IMG/VR virus record: IMGVR_UViG_3300045988_027065
Span: 1-36,735 of that record
Reading direction: 5' to 3' (one strand)
Source of the DNA: a virus
Length of the DNA stretch: 36,735 bases
A program made the translations under genes and the position numbers. The notes under the pieces are model-generated. The model saw only the letters and a program-made list of their open reading frames with translations. It ran no database searches and was not told where the DNA came from. How positions within the stretch are numbered: the first letter of the stretch is position 1; every line of letters starts with the position of its first letter. This document shows, piece after piece, positions 2,557-15,052 of the stretch.

Positions 2557-2967
2557 ATGCCAGAAAACGAAACAGTTGGGCGGCGAATCAAGACTGTAAG
2601 GCAAGAAAAGGGAATGACCCAAGCCCAACTTGCAGATCACAAAGATGTTAAGGTGACGAAAAACTACATCTATCTGATCGAGAGTGGGAAAACAGCTCCA
2701 GCAGAAAAGTTAGTTAAAGATATCGCAAAAGCGTTTGGTGTATCGGCAACGTGGCTGCTGACCGGAGATGGTAATAAATACCCGCTCCCAGAGGACGAAA
2801 CCGCCGCGTATGTTGACCAGCTCTTGCATGATGCAGAAAACCCGCTATACGACATAATCCGGGCGATCATGAAAACGTACAGCGAGCTGGACGGAAACAG
2901 CCAGGCCGTGATCAGAAACACGGTTGAACAATTTCAGAAAAACCTAAAAAAAGAGGGTCGGGGTTAA
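2557..2967 (+). CDS. XRE-family HTH repressor (CI-like, no S24 peptidase domain), 136 aa
   Basis: VGRRIKTVRQEKGMTQAQLA...IYLIESGKTAP...IAKAFGVSATWLLTGDG is a classic XRE HTH. It sits at the divergent switch on the integrase strand. Confidence 0.8.
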   Translation: MPENETVGRRIKTVRQEKGMTQAQLADHKDVKVTKNYIYLIESGKTAPAEKLVKDIAKAFGVSATWLLTGDGNKYPLPEDETAAYVDQLLHDAENPLYDIIRAIMKTYSELDGNSQAVIRNTVEQFQKNLKKEGRG

Positions 2968-2980
2968 TCCCCGGCCCTCT
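2952..2980. terminator. 12-bp GC-rich hairpin shared by two convergent genes; the strong T-tract is on the minus-strand side
   Basis: AGAGGGTCGGGG-TTAAT-CCCCGGCCCTCT. On the minus strand it is followed by TTTTTTTAGGTTTTT. Both stop codons lie in the loop. Confidence 0.7.
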
Positions 2981-3080
2981 CTATATGTCGTTTTACCAGC
3001 GTGTATATCTGACTCAAAAATGTTAGGTCATTAACTTTCTGTATCATTCTAATGATCTCGTCTCGGTATTGCTGTTCCAT
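2964..3080 (-). CDS. Small helical peptide, 38 aa (MEQQYRDEIIRMIQKVNDLTFLSQIYTLVKRHIERAGD)
   Basis: Hand translation. RBS AGGAGA lies 5 nt before the ATG at 3080. It ends in the terminator loop and is below the ORF-track cutoff. Confidence 0.4.
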   Translation of the reverse strand: MEQQYRDEIIRMIQKVNDLTFLSQIYTLVKRHIERAGD

Positions 3081-3298
3081 ATGTATCTCCTATTCGTCTC
3101 GCTTTGCCGAGCAAAGCCCAAACTGGAAAATCCCGTCGGTTTTTTCGGCAAAATGCTCAACTACTCCAATTGGGGGACAGTTGATCTAGCTTGGATAGAT
3201 GCTTGTCTAAGCTCGGTTAAAAAATTCACCTAAGTCAAGCCTAGACAAGCTCTATTATTCTGTGCTTTCATTTTTTATCAATTTTTCCGTTTTTCCTC

Positions 3299-3327
3299 TT
3301 GCGCTCTCCCGTGATTTTTAGTAAAAT
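3299..3327 (+). promoter_or_regulatory. Putative promoter TTGCGC-17 nt-TAAAAT for the 3544-4722 pair
   Basis: Hexamers and spacing read directly, about 215 nt upstream of the ATG at 3544. Confidence 0.4.
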
Positions 3328-3543
3328 CATATTGTGATTGAGCCGTTGTAAAATGGTATGTGGGCTCCGTCTAAACTCTTCCGTTTCTAGCGGCGGGAGG
3401 TCTTCATGGCACTGCATCATCGTCCCCACCTCCTTGCGGTGCCTATGCTTAGATTATACCAGTCCATTTATTCCAATCAATACCATTTATGTGCTCATTT
3501 AGTGCTCTTTGACGTTCAAATTGCGCCAAATCTGGAAAGGTCG

Positions 3544-4062
3544 ATGGGAATGAGCCAGAATCAGTCTGAGCTGATACGGCAGCTCCAGCAAATGCGGATG
3601 GAGAAGGGGCTGACCTACCAGGCCATAGTAGACGCTTGCGAGATGGCAGGGGAGCCTGTGTCTATGTCCTCTGTCCGGCGGATTTTTTCCGATGATCCAG
3701 ACCGTCCGGAGGCTTTCCGGGTCACCACGCTCCAGGCTGTGGCTCGGGCCGTAATCGGTAATGCATACAACGCGGAAACAGTCCCGCCGTCTGATTTAGC
3801 GGCGCTCCGGGCCTTGCTAGCTGTCCGCGAGGAGACAGACAAGGATCGGCAGCAGGGGATCATAGACAGGACAGAGCAGATAGCCCGGATGCAGTCCACC
3901 ATAGATGAGCTACAAGCCGAGATCAAGCGGAAGTCTAAGACCATCAAAATCATGATCCTTTGGGCCTCTGTTATGACGATGCTGCTAATTGCGTTTTTTG
4001 TGGCCCTTGCGGTCTATGTTGTTTGGGATTTGTCGCACCCTGGGTGCGGGATATTAAGATAG
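3544..4062 (+). CDS. Membrane-anchored HTH-like protein: N-terminal HTH, coiled coil, C-terminal TM (172 aa; alternative start at 3406)
   Basis: LIRQLQQMRMEKGLTYQAIVDACEMAGEPVSMSSVRRIF is HTH-like. QSTIDELQAEIKRKSK looks like coiled coil. ILWASVMTMLLIAFFVALAVYVVW is hydrophobic. Confidence 0.6.
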   Translation: MGMSQNQSELIRQLQQMRMEKGLTYQAIVDACEMAGEPVSMSSVRRIFSDDPDRPEAFRVTTLQAVARAVIGNAYNAETVPPSDLAALRALLAVREETDKDRQQGIIDRTEQIARMQSTIDELQAEIKRKSKTIKIMILWASVMTMLLIAFFVALAVYVVWDLSHPGCGILR

Positions 4063-4074
4063 GAGGAGTTAAAA

Positions 4075-4722
4075 ATGGAGCAATTAGTTGGTACGCTGCT
4101 CCTGTTGTTCGTCTTTTCCGCTATCCTGATTGGGGCCCTGATGTGGCAAAAATCCGGCACAAAGCGGGCACAGAAAAAAGCGGAAGATCAAAATCGGCAG
4201 GATGAGACCCGGCAGAAGATCGCGGAGGCAGAGGCCGAGTGGAGGAAGCAGCCCCACTCTTGGGATGCTCCAGCGGCCCCGGAAAAGCCAAAGGAGGAGC
4301 CGAAAAAGGATGATGGCGTAACATTTAAGGCCACCGGGATGGCCTACCACATGGACGGTCTAGAAAAAATCGCCGCTGAAAACTGGGACTATGAGATGAC
4401 AAACGCGGAAATAAAAGAGGAGTATGAGCAGTACGACAGAATCTATAAGTACGAGTACCCGGTAGAGACCGTGGAGCTTGTTCCGGAGCCAGACAACGAG
4501 GCCGACCCAAACGCCATTGCTGTTCACATCAATGGAGAAAAGGTGGCCTATATTAAGAGAGGTAGCACCACCAGGGCCCGGAACCTCCTGGCAAGCGGAA
4601 ACAGAAAAATAACCGCTGAGGTGTACGGTGGGCCCTACAAAATGGTGGAGGAGGACGATGATGGCAGGTTGACCGTCATCAAAGGCGAGAGCCCCATCCG
4701 CGTTATTATCAAGATCAAATAA
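4075..4722 (+). CDS. Membrane-anchored HIRAN-domain protein: N-terminal TM, charged linker, C-terminal HIRAN (215 aa)
   Basis: RBS AGGAGG upstream. The TM is LVGTLLLLFVFSAILIGALMW, followed by KSGTKRAQKK. The HIRAN-like core is FKATGMAYH...VELVPEPDNEADPNAIAVHINGEKVAYIKR. Confidence 0.6.
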   Translation: MEQLVGTLLLLFVFSAILIGALMWQKSGTKRAQKKAEDQNRQDETRQKIAEAEAEWRKQPHSWDAPAAPEKPKEEPKKDDGVTFKATGMAYHMDGLEKIAAENWDYEMTNAEIKEEYEQYDRIYKYEYPVETVELVPEPDNEADPNAIAVHINGEKVAYIKRGSTTRARNLLASGNRKITAEVYGGPYKMVEEDDDGRLTVIKGESPIRVIIKIK

Positions 4723-4726
4723 AAAT

Positions 4727-4753
4727 GCCCCCGGTGTACCGAGCACCGAGGGC
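4727..4753 (+). terminator. Hairpin after the HIRAN gene (weak T-tract)
   Basis: GCCCCCGGTG-taccgag-CACCGAGGGC pairs at 9 of 10 positions and is followed by GTTTCGC. Confidence 0.4.
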
Positions 4754-4797
4754 GTTTCGCAAATTCGGGGAGATACAAATTGGAGAAATCCAGATTT

Positions 4798-4855: not shown

Positions 4856-5962
4856 ATGCAATGCAGGAAATGCCATTCAGAAGCACCGGAGGGGGCTAAT
4901 TTCTGCCCAAAGTGCGGGGCCAAATTAACTGTAACCACAAGCGTAAAAAGCCGTGGAAACGGACAGGGGACGGCCATCAAGCGAGGGAAAACGTGGACAG
5001 CTATATGGTCTGCCCCGCGCTACATCGGCGAGGATGGGAAGGTACACTATCCACGGAAGTGGAAGGGCGGATTTGCCACAAAAAAAGCCGCCCTGGCGTA
5101 TGCGTCATGCCATCCGGAAACTGTCGTAAAAGTGCCTACACTCCGCGATTATCATAAAACATGGCACTCGGCTGCATTTACCAAGCTGGGAAAATCTAAG
5201 CAGACGGCCTATGAGATCGCTTGGAAGCGTTGGGACGGCCTGTACGACAAGCCCGTAACCGAGCTATCCATCGGAGATTTACAGGGGCAGGTGGACACTG
5301 AGACCTCCACATACTACCCAGCACGTGACATGAAAACTGTAGCGTCCCACCTTCTGAAAATGGCCGTTGCAGAGGGCCATCTCCGGGCAAATCTGGCGGA
5401 ATATATTGAGCTTCCGCCGCTGGATGAAAAAGAGATGACCCCGTACACCGAGGACGAGATTAAACTATTCTGGGCGGCATACACCGCCGGTGATACGTTT
5501 GTGGGCTACATCCTGCTGATGATCTACACTGGCATGATGCCCGGGGAGCTGTTTATCTTAAAAAAAGACATGATAGATTTTGAAAAGTTCGAGATACGTG
5601 GGGCTGGGCTCAAAACGAAAAAACGCAAGGAAACGTCCATGGTATTTCCGCAATCCATTGCCCCCGTGCTCCACAAACTCTGTGACTGCTCCAACAGCCG
5701 GAAAGATTACGTCCTCTGTATGGATCGTGACCGATTTTACCCGGAATATCACAGAGCTGTCAAGAGCGCCGGATGCAGAGACCTCCCGCCATACTCATGC
5801 CGCCACACTACCGCCACGGCGCTGGCTCTTGGTAATATTGCACCGTCCGTAATTCAGGAGGTTATGCGCCACACCAAATTTACAACAACACAGCGCTATA
5901 TCCATCCAGATACCGCCGCTTCTCATGCCGCCGTAAATCAGATGGCGGCAACGTCTGAGTAG
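4856..5962 (+). CDS. int: Tyrosine-recombinase integrase with an N-terminal zinc ribbon (368 aa from MQCRKC)
   Basis: RBS AAGGGGAG upstream. N-terminal CRKCHSEAPEGANFCPKCG. C-terminal SCRHTTATALAL...VMRHTKFTTTQRYIH is the HxxR...Y catalytic box. Confidence 0.85.
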   Translation: MQCRKCHSEAPEGANFCPKCGAKLTVTTSVKSRGNGQGTAIKRGKTWTAIWSAPRYIGEDGKVHYPRKWKGGFATKKAALAYASCHPETVVKVPTLRDYHKTWHSAAFTKLGKSKQTAYEIAWKRWDGLYDKPVTELSIGDLQGQVDTETSTYYPARDMKTVASHLLKMAVAEGHLRANLAEYIELPPLDEKEMTPYTEDEIKLFWAAYTAGDTFVGYILLMIYTGMMPGELFILKKDMIDFEKFEIRGAGLKTKKRKETSMVFPQSIAPVLHKLCDCSNSRKDYVLCMDRDRFYPEYHRAVKSAGCRDLPPYSCRHTTATALALGNIAPSVIQEVMRHTKFTTTQRYIHPDTAASHAAVNQMAATSE

Positions 5963-9311: not shown

Positions 9312-9536
9312 GTGACAAAAATGACACCAGCCGAACAGGTCAAATCCATCCGGGCCAGCACCGGCCTGTCTCAGGTTAAATTTGCCGCAGCGTTTGGAAT
9401 CTATCCACGCACACTGCAAAAATGGGAGGGCGGTGAGCGGAACCCGCCGCCATATGTAATCAACCTCCTGCGGATCGCTGTGGAATACACGATGCCGAAC
9501 ACCAATCTCACCGATCTCGCAGACGATCATGGCTGA
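9312..9536 (+). CDS. Small XRE/MqsA-HigA-like HTH protein (74 aa)
   Basis: IRASTGLSQVKFAAAFGIYPRTLQKWEGGERNPPPYVINLLRI matches the antitoxin-type HTH pattern. RBS GAGGTGA upstream. Confidence 0.65.
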   Translation: MTKMTPAEQVKSIRASTGLSQVKFAAAFGIYPRTLQKWEGGERNPPPYVINLLRIAVEYTMPNTNLTDLADDHG

Positions 9537-9656
9537 GCGGATTGCCCCTGGCCAGAGGTACGGCAGGCTAACCATCATCAGCGGCACCACCGGCGTGTTG
9601 TGGGACAAATCCGTGCGGGTGTTGAAAGCGCACATCACATTTAAGGGTCACAAGAA

Positions 9657-11914: not shown

Positions 11915-13336
11915 TTACACGCCGCAGGCGTAGATATAGATGTCCGTTGAGATGCTGGCCGTGCTGGTAGTGGTCACAAATGCCATGTAGGCATTTGCAA
12001 TCGTGTCCGCCCCGGAGGCCGGGGTGGACGGAATCGCCCAAATTGGCTTGTTGTTCACACTGCGCACCCCCACATACATGGTGGGTTTCTCGGTAAAATT
12101 CACCGGATAGGGATAGGGCACAGTGGATGAGTAGTACAGGCTGCCGCTGGCCTGTTTTATCTCATGCTGGAGCGTCGTCCGGAGCCAGCACTCCTTTTTC
12201 CCGTCGTTCCAAATGCGATACCGCCACGCCCCGGAGGTGCCCTCCTGCGCAACGTAGGATGCCGGTGCCGGGCGCTCATCCCATGCATACCACTGGCTGT
12301 TGGTGTAGCACCGGGTGGCCACATAGCCGCTGCCCGTGTTGAAGCTCACGAAGGTCTGATAGATCACGTTGCTTGTTGGGCTTGTGGTGACAATCAGCAT
12401 GCCGGTGCCGCCGTTGGGGGTGTTGGTCACCGTGGTCTTGTTCAGCCAGTACAGCCCAGCGCCTGTGTAGTCATTGATGTTCGCGGACGAACCGGACACC
12501 ATCTGATCCAGCGGGGAGGCCGGGCTGATCTCCACCCATTTCTCGCTCCACTTCCCCGTGGCGGCGTAGTAGGTGCGCAGCCACCGGCGGCCCAGCACCG
12601 GCTCGTATTCCTCCAGCTCCACGGTGATGTGCTCGCTGCCGGTGGGATTTCTGACCGGGTACACCGTCCGCCGGGCCCAGAAGCCCCCGGAGGTCACGGG
12701 GCTGTTCGTCAGGGTAGAGGCGTCCTCGGTCATGATGGTGGCGGGCTGGTTCTTCTCCGCCGTCAGGGTGTTGCCCTCCCCGGTGGCAATGGCGAGGACG
12801 TTGGTGGAAACCCCGGTGTCGTAGCGCCGCCATGCCCCGTAGGGAATCAGCCAGCGCTTGTAGGCGTCCGCCTCGGCGGCGCTGGCGGCGGCGGCATTGG
12901 CACTGGTGGCGGCGTTGGAGGCGGCAGTCTGGGCGGCGTTTTTAAGCTGCTGGAAGCTGCTGAAAACCGTTTCGGACAGGTCGGGATTCTCCGGCAGCGC
13001 CGAAGGCTCCACCACCAGAAGGAAGGTGGCGGAGCCTAAAATGGTGCCGGATTTGGTAACGGTCAGCTGACAGCGAACGTCCCCGGCCACGGCGGCCATC
13101 TGCTCCGTCACCGTAAAGCTGACGCCGGTGCCGGAGAAGCTGGCGGTGGAGGAGAAGCTCTTGCCGTCGGGCTTGGTGCCCTCCACGGTGACGGCCGACC
13201 CGGCGGGCACCGAAAAGGCGCCGGAGCCGTTCCACAGGGTCATGGTGATGGTGCGGCTGCCCTTGTCAAACTGCCGCACCGGCACTCGCAGGGGATTGCC
13301 CCCGGGGATCATGTTCAGGGAATAGGTTTGGTTCAT
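11915..13336 (-). CDS. Receptor-binding / tail fibre protein with a BppU-like N-terminal domain (473 aa)
   Basis: N-terminus LNMIPGGNPLRVPVRQFDKGSRTITMTLWNG...VRCQLTVT is BppU_N-like. An Ala-rich coiled coil is followed by a roughly 300-aa C-terminal head. Confidence 0.7.
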   Translation of the reverse strand: MNQTYSLNMIPGGNPLRVPVRQFDKGSRTITMTLWNGSGAFSVPAGSAVTVEGTKPDGKSFSSTASFSGTGVSFTVTEQMAAVAGDVRCQLTVTKSGTILGSATFLLVVEPSALPENPDLSETVFSSFQQLKNAAQTAASNAATSANAAAASAAEADAYKRWLIPYGAWRRYDTGVSTNVLAIATGEGNTLTAEKNQPATIMTEDASTLTNSPVTSGGFWARRTVYPVRNPTGSEHITVELEEYEPVLGRRWLRTYYAATGKWSEKWVEISPASPLDQMVSGSSANINDYTGAGLYWLNKTTVTNTPNGGTGMLIVTTSPTSNVIYQTFVSFNTGSGYVATRCYTNSQWYAWDERPAPASYVAQEGTSGAWRYRIWNDGKKECWLRTTLQHEIKQASGSLYYSSTVPYPYPVNFTEKPTMYVGVRSVNNKPIWAIPSTPASGADTIANAYMAFVTTTSTASISTDIYIYACGV

Positions 13337-13351
13337 TGCTGTACCTCCATA

Positions 13352-15052
13352 TCAGGTAATGTTTGTCCATTCATCGCCCTCGCTGCCTCTCCGGAACAGC
13401 CGCCCGGTGATATACACCCCGGCGCCCTTGTCCCCGGAGGAGGTGATGAGCACGCTTCCGGCCTTGCCCGTGAGCTTCGCCACCCCGGTTTTTGTGACGT
13501 AAACGCTGTAGTCCCCGGCCTGAAGCCGGATGCCGGAGCCTGTGGCAATGGCATAGCAGTCCCCGGAGGCGTTGCCCACGCCGATGCCGCTGGTGGTGCC
13601 GGATTCCGTGGCGCCGGTCATATAGCCAAGGTAGCCGCTGAGGGTGCCGTCCGGGCTGTCATAGGAGGAAATGGTGCCGGAGGTGGAAAACTCCCCGGTC
13701 TCCATGTTCCAGAAGTTCTTCCCCCGGTCATCGGTGAGCACCCCGGCCTTGATAAGCCCGGCGTTCAGGGTGCCCACGGTGATCCGGTCGGCCACAATGG
13801 CCCCGTCCTTGGTGATGGCCAGTGAAAAGGGGCCGTTATAGCCGGTATCGGAGTGCCCAAGGCCCCCCTCGTTCCAGCGCCAGAGGCTCCGGGCGGTGGC
13901 AAGATCCTCGGAATCCGACAGAATGCAAAGCTCTATGGGCTTGCCGTCCTCATCCTGCACAAGTACTACACGTCCACCGTGGCTTCCGGCTATCAGCTGC
14001 GTTGCATTCTGGATGGCCGCATCTCGCTTTGCATTAAAATCACTGTTGGGGTTTTGGATTTCGTCTTTCAGACCGGAAATCGTGTTGATTGAGTTCCTCG
14101 GGATACTGTTCACCGCTACGGTATTGTTTTCCGGGTGATATGGATGGATTTCCTCCTCCGCAATCAGTGCTGTGATAGTGCTGCCGTTGTATGCCACCCG
14201 CACCCGCTGGTATAACTCCACCTTGTGATCGCTCCAGCGCTGCGGATCACTGCGGTACAGGTCAAACAGCGATACCTCCCAAGATACCTCCGGCGTGGCC
14301 AGAGAGTCCAACAGAGCCTGTGCGGCGCTTCTGAGGCTTATGGAGTTTTCATACCGTTCATCCTTCCACACCTTGCAGATGATCTTGTCTGTATAGTGGA
14401 GATTTTCCACATAGTCCCTTCCACCGTTGATGTGCCCAATGGTCAAACCGTTCGCTCCTATGGGGTACACTCTGGTGACCAGGTCAGTAGATTTCCCTGT
14501 GCGGCTTGGACGCCGACGCATGGCTGCGCTTTCGGTGAGCAACGTCCCGCTGATCGGATTCGCTTGCGGATAGTACACCGTGCAGATGTGTCGCCCTGTG
14601 TCAAAGCGCATGGCACATCCGTAGCTGTCCTGCGCAGTAAGTGCAATGTCCAGCGGGGTACCACCTGCATCCAGCAGTACACTCCGTCTCTGGGTGTCCA
14701 TGGTTTCATAGACCATGCTCCAGCCGCTGGGCACTACCTGCTGCATGGTCACAGGCAGGCTGGATGTGTTGTTGTAGTAGTAGAAGACAGCGGTAGATTG
14801 CCATGCTTCCAGATTCAGCTGGCAGTCCACGTCTGCGGTACTGCTGCCGGCATCAATGCCCTTGATGACGTAGGTCTGTTCCTCGGTTGTCTCATAGATA
14901 TAGGCCTCTTCCGCTAGCTGGGGGAACGCAGGATCATCCAGATAGAGTTCAAAATGCAGTGTATCTATGCCATTCCATTTATGTGTAACGGCATAATTGT
15001 TTCCTACATCGTGGATTGGGACATTCCCCTCAGCTGTAATCAGTTCAAGCAT
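13352..15052 (-). CDS. Tail-associated protein Tal (prophage-tail/endopeptidase-tail family), 566 aa
   Basis: N-terminus MLELITAEGNVPIH...HKWNGIDTLHFELY. It follows Dit. Confidence 0.7.
   Translation of the reverse strand: MLELITAEGNVPIHDVGNNYAVTHKWNGIDTLHFELYLDDPAFPQLAEEAYIYETTEEQTYVIKGIDAGSSTADVDCQLNLEAWQSTAVFYYYNNTSSLPVTMQQVVPSGWSMVYETMDTQRRSVLLDAGGTPLDIALTAQDSYGCAMRFDTGRHICTVYYPQANPISGTLLTESAAMRRRPSRTGKSTDLVTRVYPIGANGLTIGHINGGRDYVENLHYTDKIICKVWKDERYENSISLRSAAQALLDSLATPEVSWEVSLFDLYRSDPQRWSDHKVELYQRVRVAYNGSTITALIAEEEIHPYHPENNTVAVNSIPRNSINTISGLKDEIQNPNSDFNAKRDAAIQNATQLIAGSHGGRVVLVQDEDGKPIELCILSDSEDLATARSLWRWNEGGLGHSDTGYNGPFSLAITKDGAIVADRITVGTLNAGLIKAGVLTDDRGKNFWNMETGEFSTSGTISSYDSPDGTLSGYLGYMTGATESGTTSGIGVGNASGDCYAIATGSGIRLQAGDYSVYVTKTGVAKLTGKAGSVLITSSGDKGAGVYITGRLFRRGSEGDEWTNIT

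Follow-up and report, generated by a model that had tools for sequence, protein, structure and literature searches.

In pneumococcal prophages, a gene of the lysogeny module that encodes a transmembrane (TM) anchor joined to a HIRAN domain has been named thaL, in a study where prophages and transformation were shown to be in conflict (PMC12637031). Two further precedents, AbiP of Lactococcus and PdpSau of Staphylococcus aureus prophages, are tested membrane-anchored nucleic-acid-binding defence proteins acting through abortive infection, as far as the account of PMC10127798 covers them (AbiP through Domingues 2008, cited there). PdpSau depolarises the membrane upon infection (PMC10127798). Here we analyzed a pair of plus-strand genes, P1 and P2, of the IMG/VR virus record IMGVR_UViG_3300045988_027065. 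This stretch of 36,735 nucleotides (about 36.7 kb, hereafter the window) corresponds to the genome of a temperate, siphovirus-like phage of the human gut, with the structural genes on the minus strand and the lysogeny module on the plus strand. The first-pass annotation of the window had presented the pair as a candidate two-gene exclusion or defence module of an architecture not known to be described. This novelty had to be given up: thaL was already named, AbiP and PdpSau are precedents within what PMC10127798 reports of them, and P2 is a member of a named but uncharacterised kind (ThaL-type). We observed that P2 is a membrane-anchored HIRAN protein, facing the cytoplasm according to its predicted topology, and that proteins of this type recur as cargo of prophage lysogeny modules, mostly with no P1 beside them.

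P2 (215 aa; 4075-4722, plus strand) starts 12 nt after the stop codon of P1. Its ribosome-binding site AGGAGG (4061-4066, plus strand, read from the sequence) overlaps this stop and lies 8 nt before the ATG, so that the arrangement of the two open reading frames (ORFs) is the one first described. Hydropathy places a TM helix at residues 3-25 (nt 4081-4149). It is preceded by no lysine or arginine (K/R) and followed by five within 12 residues; given the positive-inside rule, the HIRAN domain is therefore predicted to be cytoplasmic, in agreement with the initial topology. In the AlphaFold2 model a linker rich in K, R, E and P covers residues 26-81, i.e. about 56 aa where roughly 70 had been announced. 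The HIRAN domain, which includes a helical insert, occupies residues 82-214 (nt 4318-4716) and is recognized both by Pfam and by its fold. The match to PF08797 reaches 26.6 bits for a gathering cut-off of 24.7 (E=5.3e-6). A profile built on 75 P2 relatives finds both the HIRAN domain of HLTF (E=3.5e-6) and lp_0118, a bacterial HIRAN protein. The model (predicted local distance difference test, pLDDT, 93) consists of a helix (2-58), a low-complexity stretch up to residue 81 and a beta-rich domain (82-214). The top 16 PDB matches found by Foldseek are all HIRAN structures (3K2Y, 4S0N, 4XZF/G, 5BNH, 6KCS; probability 1.0, E from 8e-4 to 9e-3), and the HIRAN assignment, first based on the core segment, is thereby confirmed.

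HIRAN domains of the HLTF type bind 3'-OH single-stranded DNA ends. The pocket residues of HLTF are presumably N91, D94, Y72 and Y93 in the usual numbering, D94 being the Asp which we take to contact the 3'-OH. In the P2 family the core motif PEPDNxxDxNA is essentially invariant. According to the HMMER alignment, D144 of P2 corresponds to HLTF D94 and N141 to HLTF N91, and both are conserved in all 75 relatives. The equivalent of Y72 (Y91 in P2) is aromatic in 67 of them.

The genomic context of P2 was then considered. The module reads, on the plus strand, XRE repressor, P1, P2 and tyrosine integrase, with 577 bp between repressor and P1 and 133 nt between the end of P2 and the integrase start; the location between a repressor and an integrase, now both identified by Pfam, thus stands as first given. 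P1 has many relatives and P2 only five close ones. In related phages P1 is always found directly upstream of the integrase, cargo apart, and its surroundings vary. A HIRAN gene lies between P1 and a tyrosine integrase in loci L001 and L003-6. In L010-12 this place is held by a DUF5067 protein with a zinc ribbon and a TM segment, again before a tyrosine integrase. Nothing separates P1 from a serine integrase in L007-9 and L013-16, where the interval between repressor and P1 contains a PH_gly_zipper protein, a 380-aa Ltp-family lipoprotein, unknown genes or an insertion sequence (DDE transposase). P1 is therefore flanked by two cargo slots (2968-3549 and 4063-4722 in the window). Ltp is a known exclusion family. 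The region is a hot-spot of cargo, and relatives also have an Ltp-type lipoprotein in their lysogeny module, in line with the earlier remark that genes between repressor and integrase often encode exclusion or defence. At the edge of the downstream slot, the window and the relatives that carry DUF5067 recover their nucleotide homology at 4717, with the P2 stop codon and the hairpin that follows it. One of these relatives, L010 (logan SRR29133706_24912), is a different phage, whose P1 is 59% identical, which carries DUF5067 for HIRAN and whose nucleotide identity of 74-92% comes in patches; that its length equals the 36,735 bp of the window is probably fortuitous. Identities between the window and L001 are very unequal (24% for the repressor, 98% for P1, 74% for P2, 82% for the integrase), as is typical of mosaic genomes; compared with L003 they are 65% for P1 and 57% for P2. 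The place of P2, between P1 and the integrase, is thus a slot whose cargo can be exchanged.

To see how general this is, we considered small HIRAN proteins at large. Profile searches retrieved 209 of them, and 121 were examined for anchors. TM segments were found in 86 cases: 72 at the N-terminus (57 two-helix hairpins and 15 single helices), 10 at the C-terminus and 4 in other arrangements. The remaining 35 have none, and many of these start with an amphipathic MGLFSRLF-type or tryptophan-rich segment. In single-TM relatives we counted 58 K/R on the HIRAN side versus 18 on the N side, and hairpin forms are K/R-rich on both flanks; the charge distribution predicts a cytoplasmic HIRAN domain for N-terminal anchors of both kinds. 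Seventy-nine HIRAN loci were available in IMG/VR, 45 TM-bearing and 34 soluble. An integrase lies directly downstream in 26 of the 45 TM-HIRAN loci and in none of the 34 soluble ones (Fisher p=5e-9), a comparison that represents about 11 distinct 50% clusters. With serine-recombinase queries added the count becomes 27 of 45 (the added locus being L038); in some other loci an integrase is located no more than about 1.5 kb away. TM-HIRAN genes occupy the interval between repressor and integrase behind XRE and ImmA genes (L019-21), behind a repressor of the XRE-S24 type, where the protein is DUF4236-TM-HIRAN (L024/25), and behind cI in Javan349 and IPP12, two prophages of streptococci. All three kinds of module lack a P1 homologue. 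TM-HIRAN proteins, anchored at either end, are thus recurrent stand-alone cargo of the lysogeny modules of unrelated Firmicute prophages, widespread from gut Clostridia to pneumococci.

P1 (170 aa; 3550-4062, plus strand, stop codon at 4060-4062) is of a different nature. The ATG at 3550 is more likely to be its start than the upstream in-frame alternative at 3544, because the resulting 170 aa match the homologues and a putative GGAAAGG ribosome-binding site then lies 9 nt upstream. The protein is composed of an XRE-like helix-turn-helix (HTH) domain recognized by fold (residues 3-69, nt 3556-3756), a long helix with a heptad pattern (residues 80-133), a TM anchor (residues 134-158, nt 3949-4023) preceded by KRKSKTIK, and a conserved external tail, WDxxHPxxG.I (residues 159-170). 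In the heptad helix, 67% of the a/d positions are L, I, V, M or A versus 23% of the others, and the coiled coil and C-terminal anchor noticed at first sight are both retained. The predicted topology leaves the HTH domain in the cytoplasm, like the HIRAN domain of P2. The HTH domain, also proposed there, stands by its fold and stays below threshold in Pfam, the best match being HTH_31 (E=0.003; 18.2 bits for a cut-off of 27). The AlphaFold2 model (pLDDT 79) has helices at 3-19, 23-32, 39-47 and 58-69, then one continuous helix from 80 to 162, and its N-terminal part has an XRE/Cro-like HTH fold. Nearly all of the top 25 or so PDB matches found by Foldseek are XRE-type HTH proteins (C.Esp1396I, ClgR, the N-terminal domain of lambda cI). 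Over PDB and BFVD, the homologue of P1 in BFVD set aside, the best-ranked matches are again nearly all of the XRE type; probabilities are 0.5-1.0 (0.8-1.0 for proteins such as those just named) and the TM-score to the target about 0.6, with weak E-values (0.005-1) since the HTH domain accounts for 70 of the 170 residues. Distant members of the family contain a canonical HTH: HTH_3 is matched at 1.1e-8 in L042, and L174 has precomputed matches to HTH_31 and HTH_3.

An exhaustive profile search gathered 343 representative clusters of P1-like proteins, 109 of them at E<=1e-10. All are 85-250 aa long and share one layout, including the tail after the TM segment, D/WDxx[HD]PxxG.[FI]. Pfam, NCBIfam, PHROGs and PADLOC contain no model for this family, and searches of PHROG, PADLOC and NCBIfam returned no functional name for P1 or P2. 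P1 thus represents a family, so far undescribed, of XRE-like HTH proteins with a tail anchor. We found 14 window-type P1 loci in IMG/VR; in all 13 that extend far enough downstream, an integrase follows directly (4 tyrosine, 9 serine). In the broader family, 49 loci have enough downstream sequence, and an integrase is found within 1.6 kb in 22, often overlapping or with a gap below 170 nt. The constant partner of P1 is therefore the integrase gene, of either class, and not HIRAN. From its place in the membrane, P1 most likely controls the P1-cargo-int operon or has some other role in lysogeny. The conserved external tail, together with the anchoring at the C-terminus, hints at control by a membrane protease, which is speculation.

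Three other identities suggested for P1 were discarded. The match to SpoIIIAB (PF09548) amounts to 29.3 bits for a cut-off of 32.5; only one of 70 family members matches, and no SpoIIIAB structure came up in the PDB searches. The match of the P1 profile to TAL effectors (E=1e-12) sums many repeat matches of 3-7 bits, none significant singly. The HTH motif of P1, GLSYQxIVDxxExxGxxVSLSTVKRVF, resembles one TAL-effector repeat, and this helix-loop-helix resemblance alone inflates the E-values against TAL-effector structures. The name "Vesicle-associated membrane protein 2", borne by a P1 homologue of 54% identity (UniProt/BFVD A0A8S5U9H8), is an annotation artefact due to a coiled coil followed by a TM segment.

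As to function, we tentatively favour the capture of DNA 3' ends at the membrane by P2, a stand-alone cargo protein that would confer exclusion or abortive defence. P2 would be expressed from the prophage in the lysogen, and its HIRAN pocket (PEPDNxxDxNA, with D144 and N141) would bind free 3' ends of DNA at the cytoplasmic face of the membrane. It could then capture the entering end of a superinfecting phage DNA, leading to exclusion. Alternatively, it could sense phage DNA and act through its TM segment and long helix, by analogy with AbiP and PdpSau in so far as PMC10127798 describes them, leading to abortive infection. P2 would probably be able to act without P1.

Several points weigh against this interpretation. 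The TM-scores of the P2 model to HIRAN structures are modest (0.4-0.5), which we attribute to the helical insert and the long C-terminal hairpin. The residue equivalent to the stacking Tyr93 of HLTF is Ala143 in P2 and non-aromatic too (Ala, Val or other) in its closest relatives, whereas Tyr or His is found there in 55 of the 75 relatives. P2 has no recognisable effector domain, and its expression, DNA binding and phenotype are predictions from the sequence. The study that named thaL gave it no functional test, and other membrane proteins of lysogeny modules, SzaL and SpaL, modulated prophage activation or induction there, not exclusion (PMC12637031). Finally, P1 and HIRAN genes are neighbours more often than expected by chance: 4 contigs carry both families where 0.03-0.7 would be expected from about 33 P1 and 105 HIRAN loci in IMG/VR, by a rough Poisson estimate (universe of 1e5 to 5e3 contigs) made without a neutral control set. 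This excess argues against a full autonomy of P2.

The same observation counts in favour of the strongest rival, namely that P1 and P2 form a true, if facultative, two-component module in which, for instance, HIRAN would sense DNA ends and P1 would be the transducer or regulator, in line with the first-pass annotation. P1-like genes adjoin HIRAN genes in about six divergent lineages, three of them with no integrase nearby, with order and orientation shuffled. Besides the window group, where the two genes are adjacent, they are distributed as follows. In L174 the P1-like gene overlaps the HIRAN gene (E=1.9e-8). L038 reads XRE, XRE, TM-HIRAN, P1-like (E=1.3e-12), serine integrase, and L036 has a TM-HIRAN gene, then at some distance a P1-like gene (E=7.5e-8) and a serine integrase. 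The two genes are divergently oriented in L042 (E=1.4e-20), and a HIRAN gene precedes a P1-like gene at some distance in L022/23 (E=1e-29). In L173 the HIRAN gene is followed by an HTH-coiled-coil protein with no TM segment. Moreover, the window and L003 have kept both genes while these diverged in parallel, as the identities given above indicate. On the other side, the two genes are mostly found apart. Only 1 of the 14 window-type P1 loci carries HIRAN, as do 3 of the 49 broader ones, all three of the window lineage; only 4 of 35 HIRAN clusters of IMG/VR have an adjoining P1-like gene; and the XRE+ImmA, XRE-S24 and streptococcal modules contain TM-HIRAN with no P1-like gene. The co-occurrence itself may be inflated, because both families independently favour integrase-proximal modules of gut Clostridia phages. 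The adjacency is thus recurrent but facultative, and the pair, which the first-pass annotation had taken as a two-gene module, is not an obligate one. Some cooperation of the two proteins keeps a real, if minor, share of probability.

In a wider form of this idea, which we consider doubtful, the P1 family and HIRAN proteins as a whole would constitute an unrecognised and loosely linked membrane-associated module of gut Firmicute phages. A sensor of DNA 3' ends kept at the membrane, in many of these lineages by an anchor of its own, would signal to a membrane-tethered transcription factor of the P1 family, and this factor would control the integrase operon, the lysis-lysogeny decision or exclusion. 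Gene order would be shuffled because the link is functional and not structural, and the face-to-face promoters and PPP-containing leader peptide found upstream of P1 (see below) would be part of the control circuit.

Another rival turns to natural transformation. Transforming single-stranded DNA enters the cell 3' end first, and such 3'-OH ends are what the HIRAN domain of HLTF binds. P2 could thus act on incoming single-stranded DNA, and not on phage DNA, by capping its leading 3' end. This would keep recombination from deleting the prophage ("chromosomal curing"), or would inform the induction circuit of DNA that is entering or damaged. P2 homologues are present in many prophages of pneumococci and oral streptococci, whose hosts are naturally competent, and thaL was named precisely in the study of the conflict between prophages and transformation, with SzaL and SpaL as modulators of prophage activation (PMC12637031). 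The missing functional test of thaL in that study counts here too, however, competence is not known in the probable Oscillospiraceae host of the window, and elsewhere the cargo found in this slot is extracellular or a lipoprotein, as is typical of exclusion. We regard this explanation as improbable.

It is very unlikely that P2 serves the phage's own DNA, whether in integration or excision or, after injection or before packaging, in protecting or positioning the genome ends: P2 is apparently co-operonic with the integrase (133 nt upstream of its start) and eukaryotic HIRAN domains act in DNA repair and fork remodelling, but P2 is dispensable for the life cycle, since close relatives with integrases 82-86% identical lack it or carry the unrelated DUF5067 protein in its place, and HIRAN accompanies tyrosine as well as serine integrases and several types of repressor.

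Capture of 3' ends by P2 thus remains our preferred interpretation. If it is true, and the capture takes place at the site of entry, it would represent a simple single-gene exclusion of phage or transforming DNA, and the first role of a HIRAN domain outside replication-fork repair. The survey supplies the objects for testing it: thaL genes from prophages of pneumococci and S. oralis that can be cultivated, and mutants of the pocket residues D144 and N141. The P1 family, linked to both recombinase classes, is a separate lead into the control of integrase expression.

The regulatory signals around the pair were also considered. A sigma-70-like promoter, TTGCGC-17-TAAAAT (3299-3327, plus strand), had been proposed upstream of P1. 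It falls below our scan threshold, with a -35 match of 3/6; similar sites are nevertheless present in L001, L003 and L013, about 105-125 nt upstream of a conserved element, and a promoter for a P1-P2-int operon at this position is plausible. Between repressor and P1 we also observed a unit on the minus strand (3268-3480), with equivalents in L001, L003, L007, L010, L013 and L108. It contains an extended -10 promoter, TTGATT-16-TGnTATAAT (3480->3453, minus strand), present in 7/7 lineages carrying the element, and a small ORF (3268-3420, minus strand). Lineage comparison indicates that only the strong Shine-Dalgarno sequence and the first 12 codons of this ORF are conserved: the peptides start with M[MRK]QCHEDYPPPE, their tails are unrelated and their total length is 30-62 aa. 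The PPP motif is of the ribosome-stalling type. The minus-strand promoter faces the plus-strand one and the predicted transcripts overlap by about 110 nt, so that the unit may exert antisense or interference control of the integrase operon. An RNA pseudoknot was envisaged for the conserved element (3385-3445), whose arms GGTGGG/CCCACC and GGCACTGC/GCAGTGCC are complementary. The peptide-coding reading was preferred, and the peptide seems to be under selection, because most changes from one lineage to another affect third positions of the minus-strand frame and are synonymous. Elsewhere, a different small minus-strand ORF of 32-41 aa, with the motif C[T]D..LLD.I..LL..G, was observed between the HIRAN and HTH genes of L022 (4021-4119) and L173 (4024-4149), a situation reminiscent of the one upstream of P1 in the window, where a small divergent ORF is also present. 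The hairpin first reported at 4727-4753 (GC-rich, on neither strand in particular) is confirmed, with 10 pairs, 8 of them G-C, and lies at the cargo slot's right edge. Its T-run is on the minus-strand side, the plus strand continuing with GTTTCG only.

The remaining features of the window concern the borders of the module. The XRE/CI-type repressor (136 aa; 2557-2967, plus strand) matches HTH_19 (7e-15) and HTH_3 (2e-13) in Pfam as well as transcriptional repressor families of PHROG. It forms the left border of the module, divergent from the early genes of the minus strand. A perfect consensus sigma-70 promoter, TTGACA-17-TATAAT (12/12), is present on the minus strand at 2442-2470, within a 138-aa ORF (2099-2515), and probably drives early lytic transcription away from the repressor. 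The true cro-like gene is probably shorter than this listed ORF, to judge from the genes of 68-74 aa found there in relatives. The tyrosine integrase (368 aa from the ATG at 4856; 4856-5962, plus strand, the frame being open from a TTG at 4796) matches Phage_integrase of Pfam (1.3e-15) and has the same length in relatives, with 82-86% identity. Its N-terminus is a zinc ribbon (Zn_Ribbon_1, 2.9e-7), kept in relatives, and precedes a weak arm-binding match. A CxxC...CxxC ribbon is also found at the start of the DUF5067 cargo protein of L010. Neither a tRNA remnant nor a known RNA was found above threshold by ARAGORN and Rfam, on the attP side or elsewhere. Further away, the region around 12000-14000, which spans the minus-strand ORFs 11915-13336 and 13352-15052, has a G+C content of 0.63-0.64 versus 0.50-0.58 elsewhere. 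In L003, a gene truncated at the locus end (9513-9596) has a precomputed Pfam match to AcrIC5, an anti-CRISPR family; it follows a small MqsA/HTH_3-like gene and lies downstream of the structural-gene end of the module. The nearest public sequence to the window is the IMG/VR contig 3300045988_041547 (98-100% protein identity), and the nearest cellular match a 4.2-kb contig binned with a metagenome-assembled genome of an uncultured Oscillospiraceae (98% nucleotide identity over 2.2 kb). The remaining relatives all come from human or animal gut metagenomes.

P2 was also compared with described systems. Membership in PDC-M03 of PADLOC, which associates a HipA-like kinase with a small HIRAN protein, was rejected: P2 matches PDC-M03B weakly (E=6.6e-4) over the HIRAN core only, no HipA-like kinase is present in the lysogeny module of the window and the genomic context differs. 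The exclusion genes of the Ltp (TP-J34) and Sie2009 types encode, like P2, small membrane-associated proteins between repressor and integrase. These act outside or within the membrane with no DNA-binding domain, whereas P2 has its HIRAN domain, and Pfam and PHROG searches reveal no homology between them. With the HIRAN domains of HLTF (4S0N, 4XZF, 5BNH) and lp_0118 (3K2Y), P2 shares the fold and the core motif around the 3'-OH-binding Asp. In P2, however, a helical segment is inserted at residues 89-116 and the C-terminal beta-hairpin is extended; P2 further differs from HLTF by its tethering to the membrane, by the lack of SNF2/RING context and by Ala in place of Tyr93, the aromatic residue missing from the window subclade unlike in most of the HIRAN family.

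AbiP and PdpSau, as PMC10127798 presents them, resemble P2 by a single N-terminal TM helix, a cytoplasmic nucleic-acid-binding domain and a single-gene organization. PdpSau is in addition prophage-borne accessory cargo like P2, but its gene belongs to the lysis module and P2 to the lysogeny module (PMC10127798). Their DNA-binding part is, within that same account, OB-fold-like (oligonucleotide/oligosaccharide-binding) and that of P2 is HIRAN, and PHROG and PADLOC searches give no sequence or profile similarity; the relation is one of analogy and not of membership. ThaL is the closest counterpart. The comparison, made on streptococcal TM-HIRAN genes of INPHARED which are not confirmed as the published thaL, gives for P2 an E-value of 4e-12 with Javan349 over 96% of its length, and matches also in IPP12/17/20/21/28/29/30. 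Identity is only about 27-37%, and the host clade differs, as does the anchor: a single N-terminal helix in P2, a two-helix hairpin in Javan349 and a C-terminal hairpin in IPP12. In both cases a TM anchor is joined to a HIRAN domain, and the gene lies between repressor and integrase.

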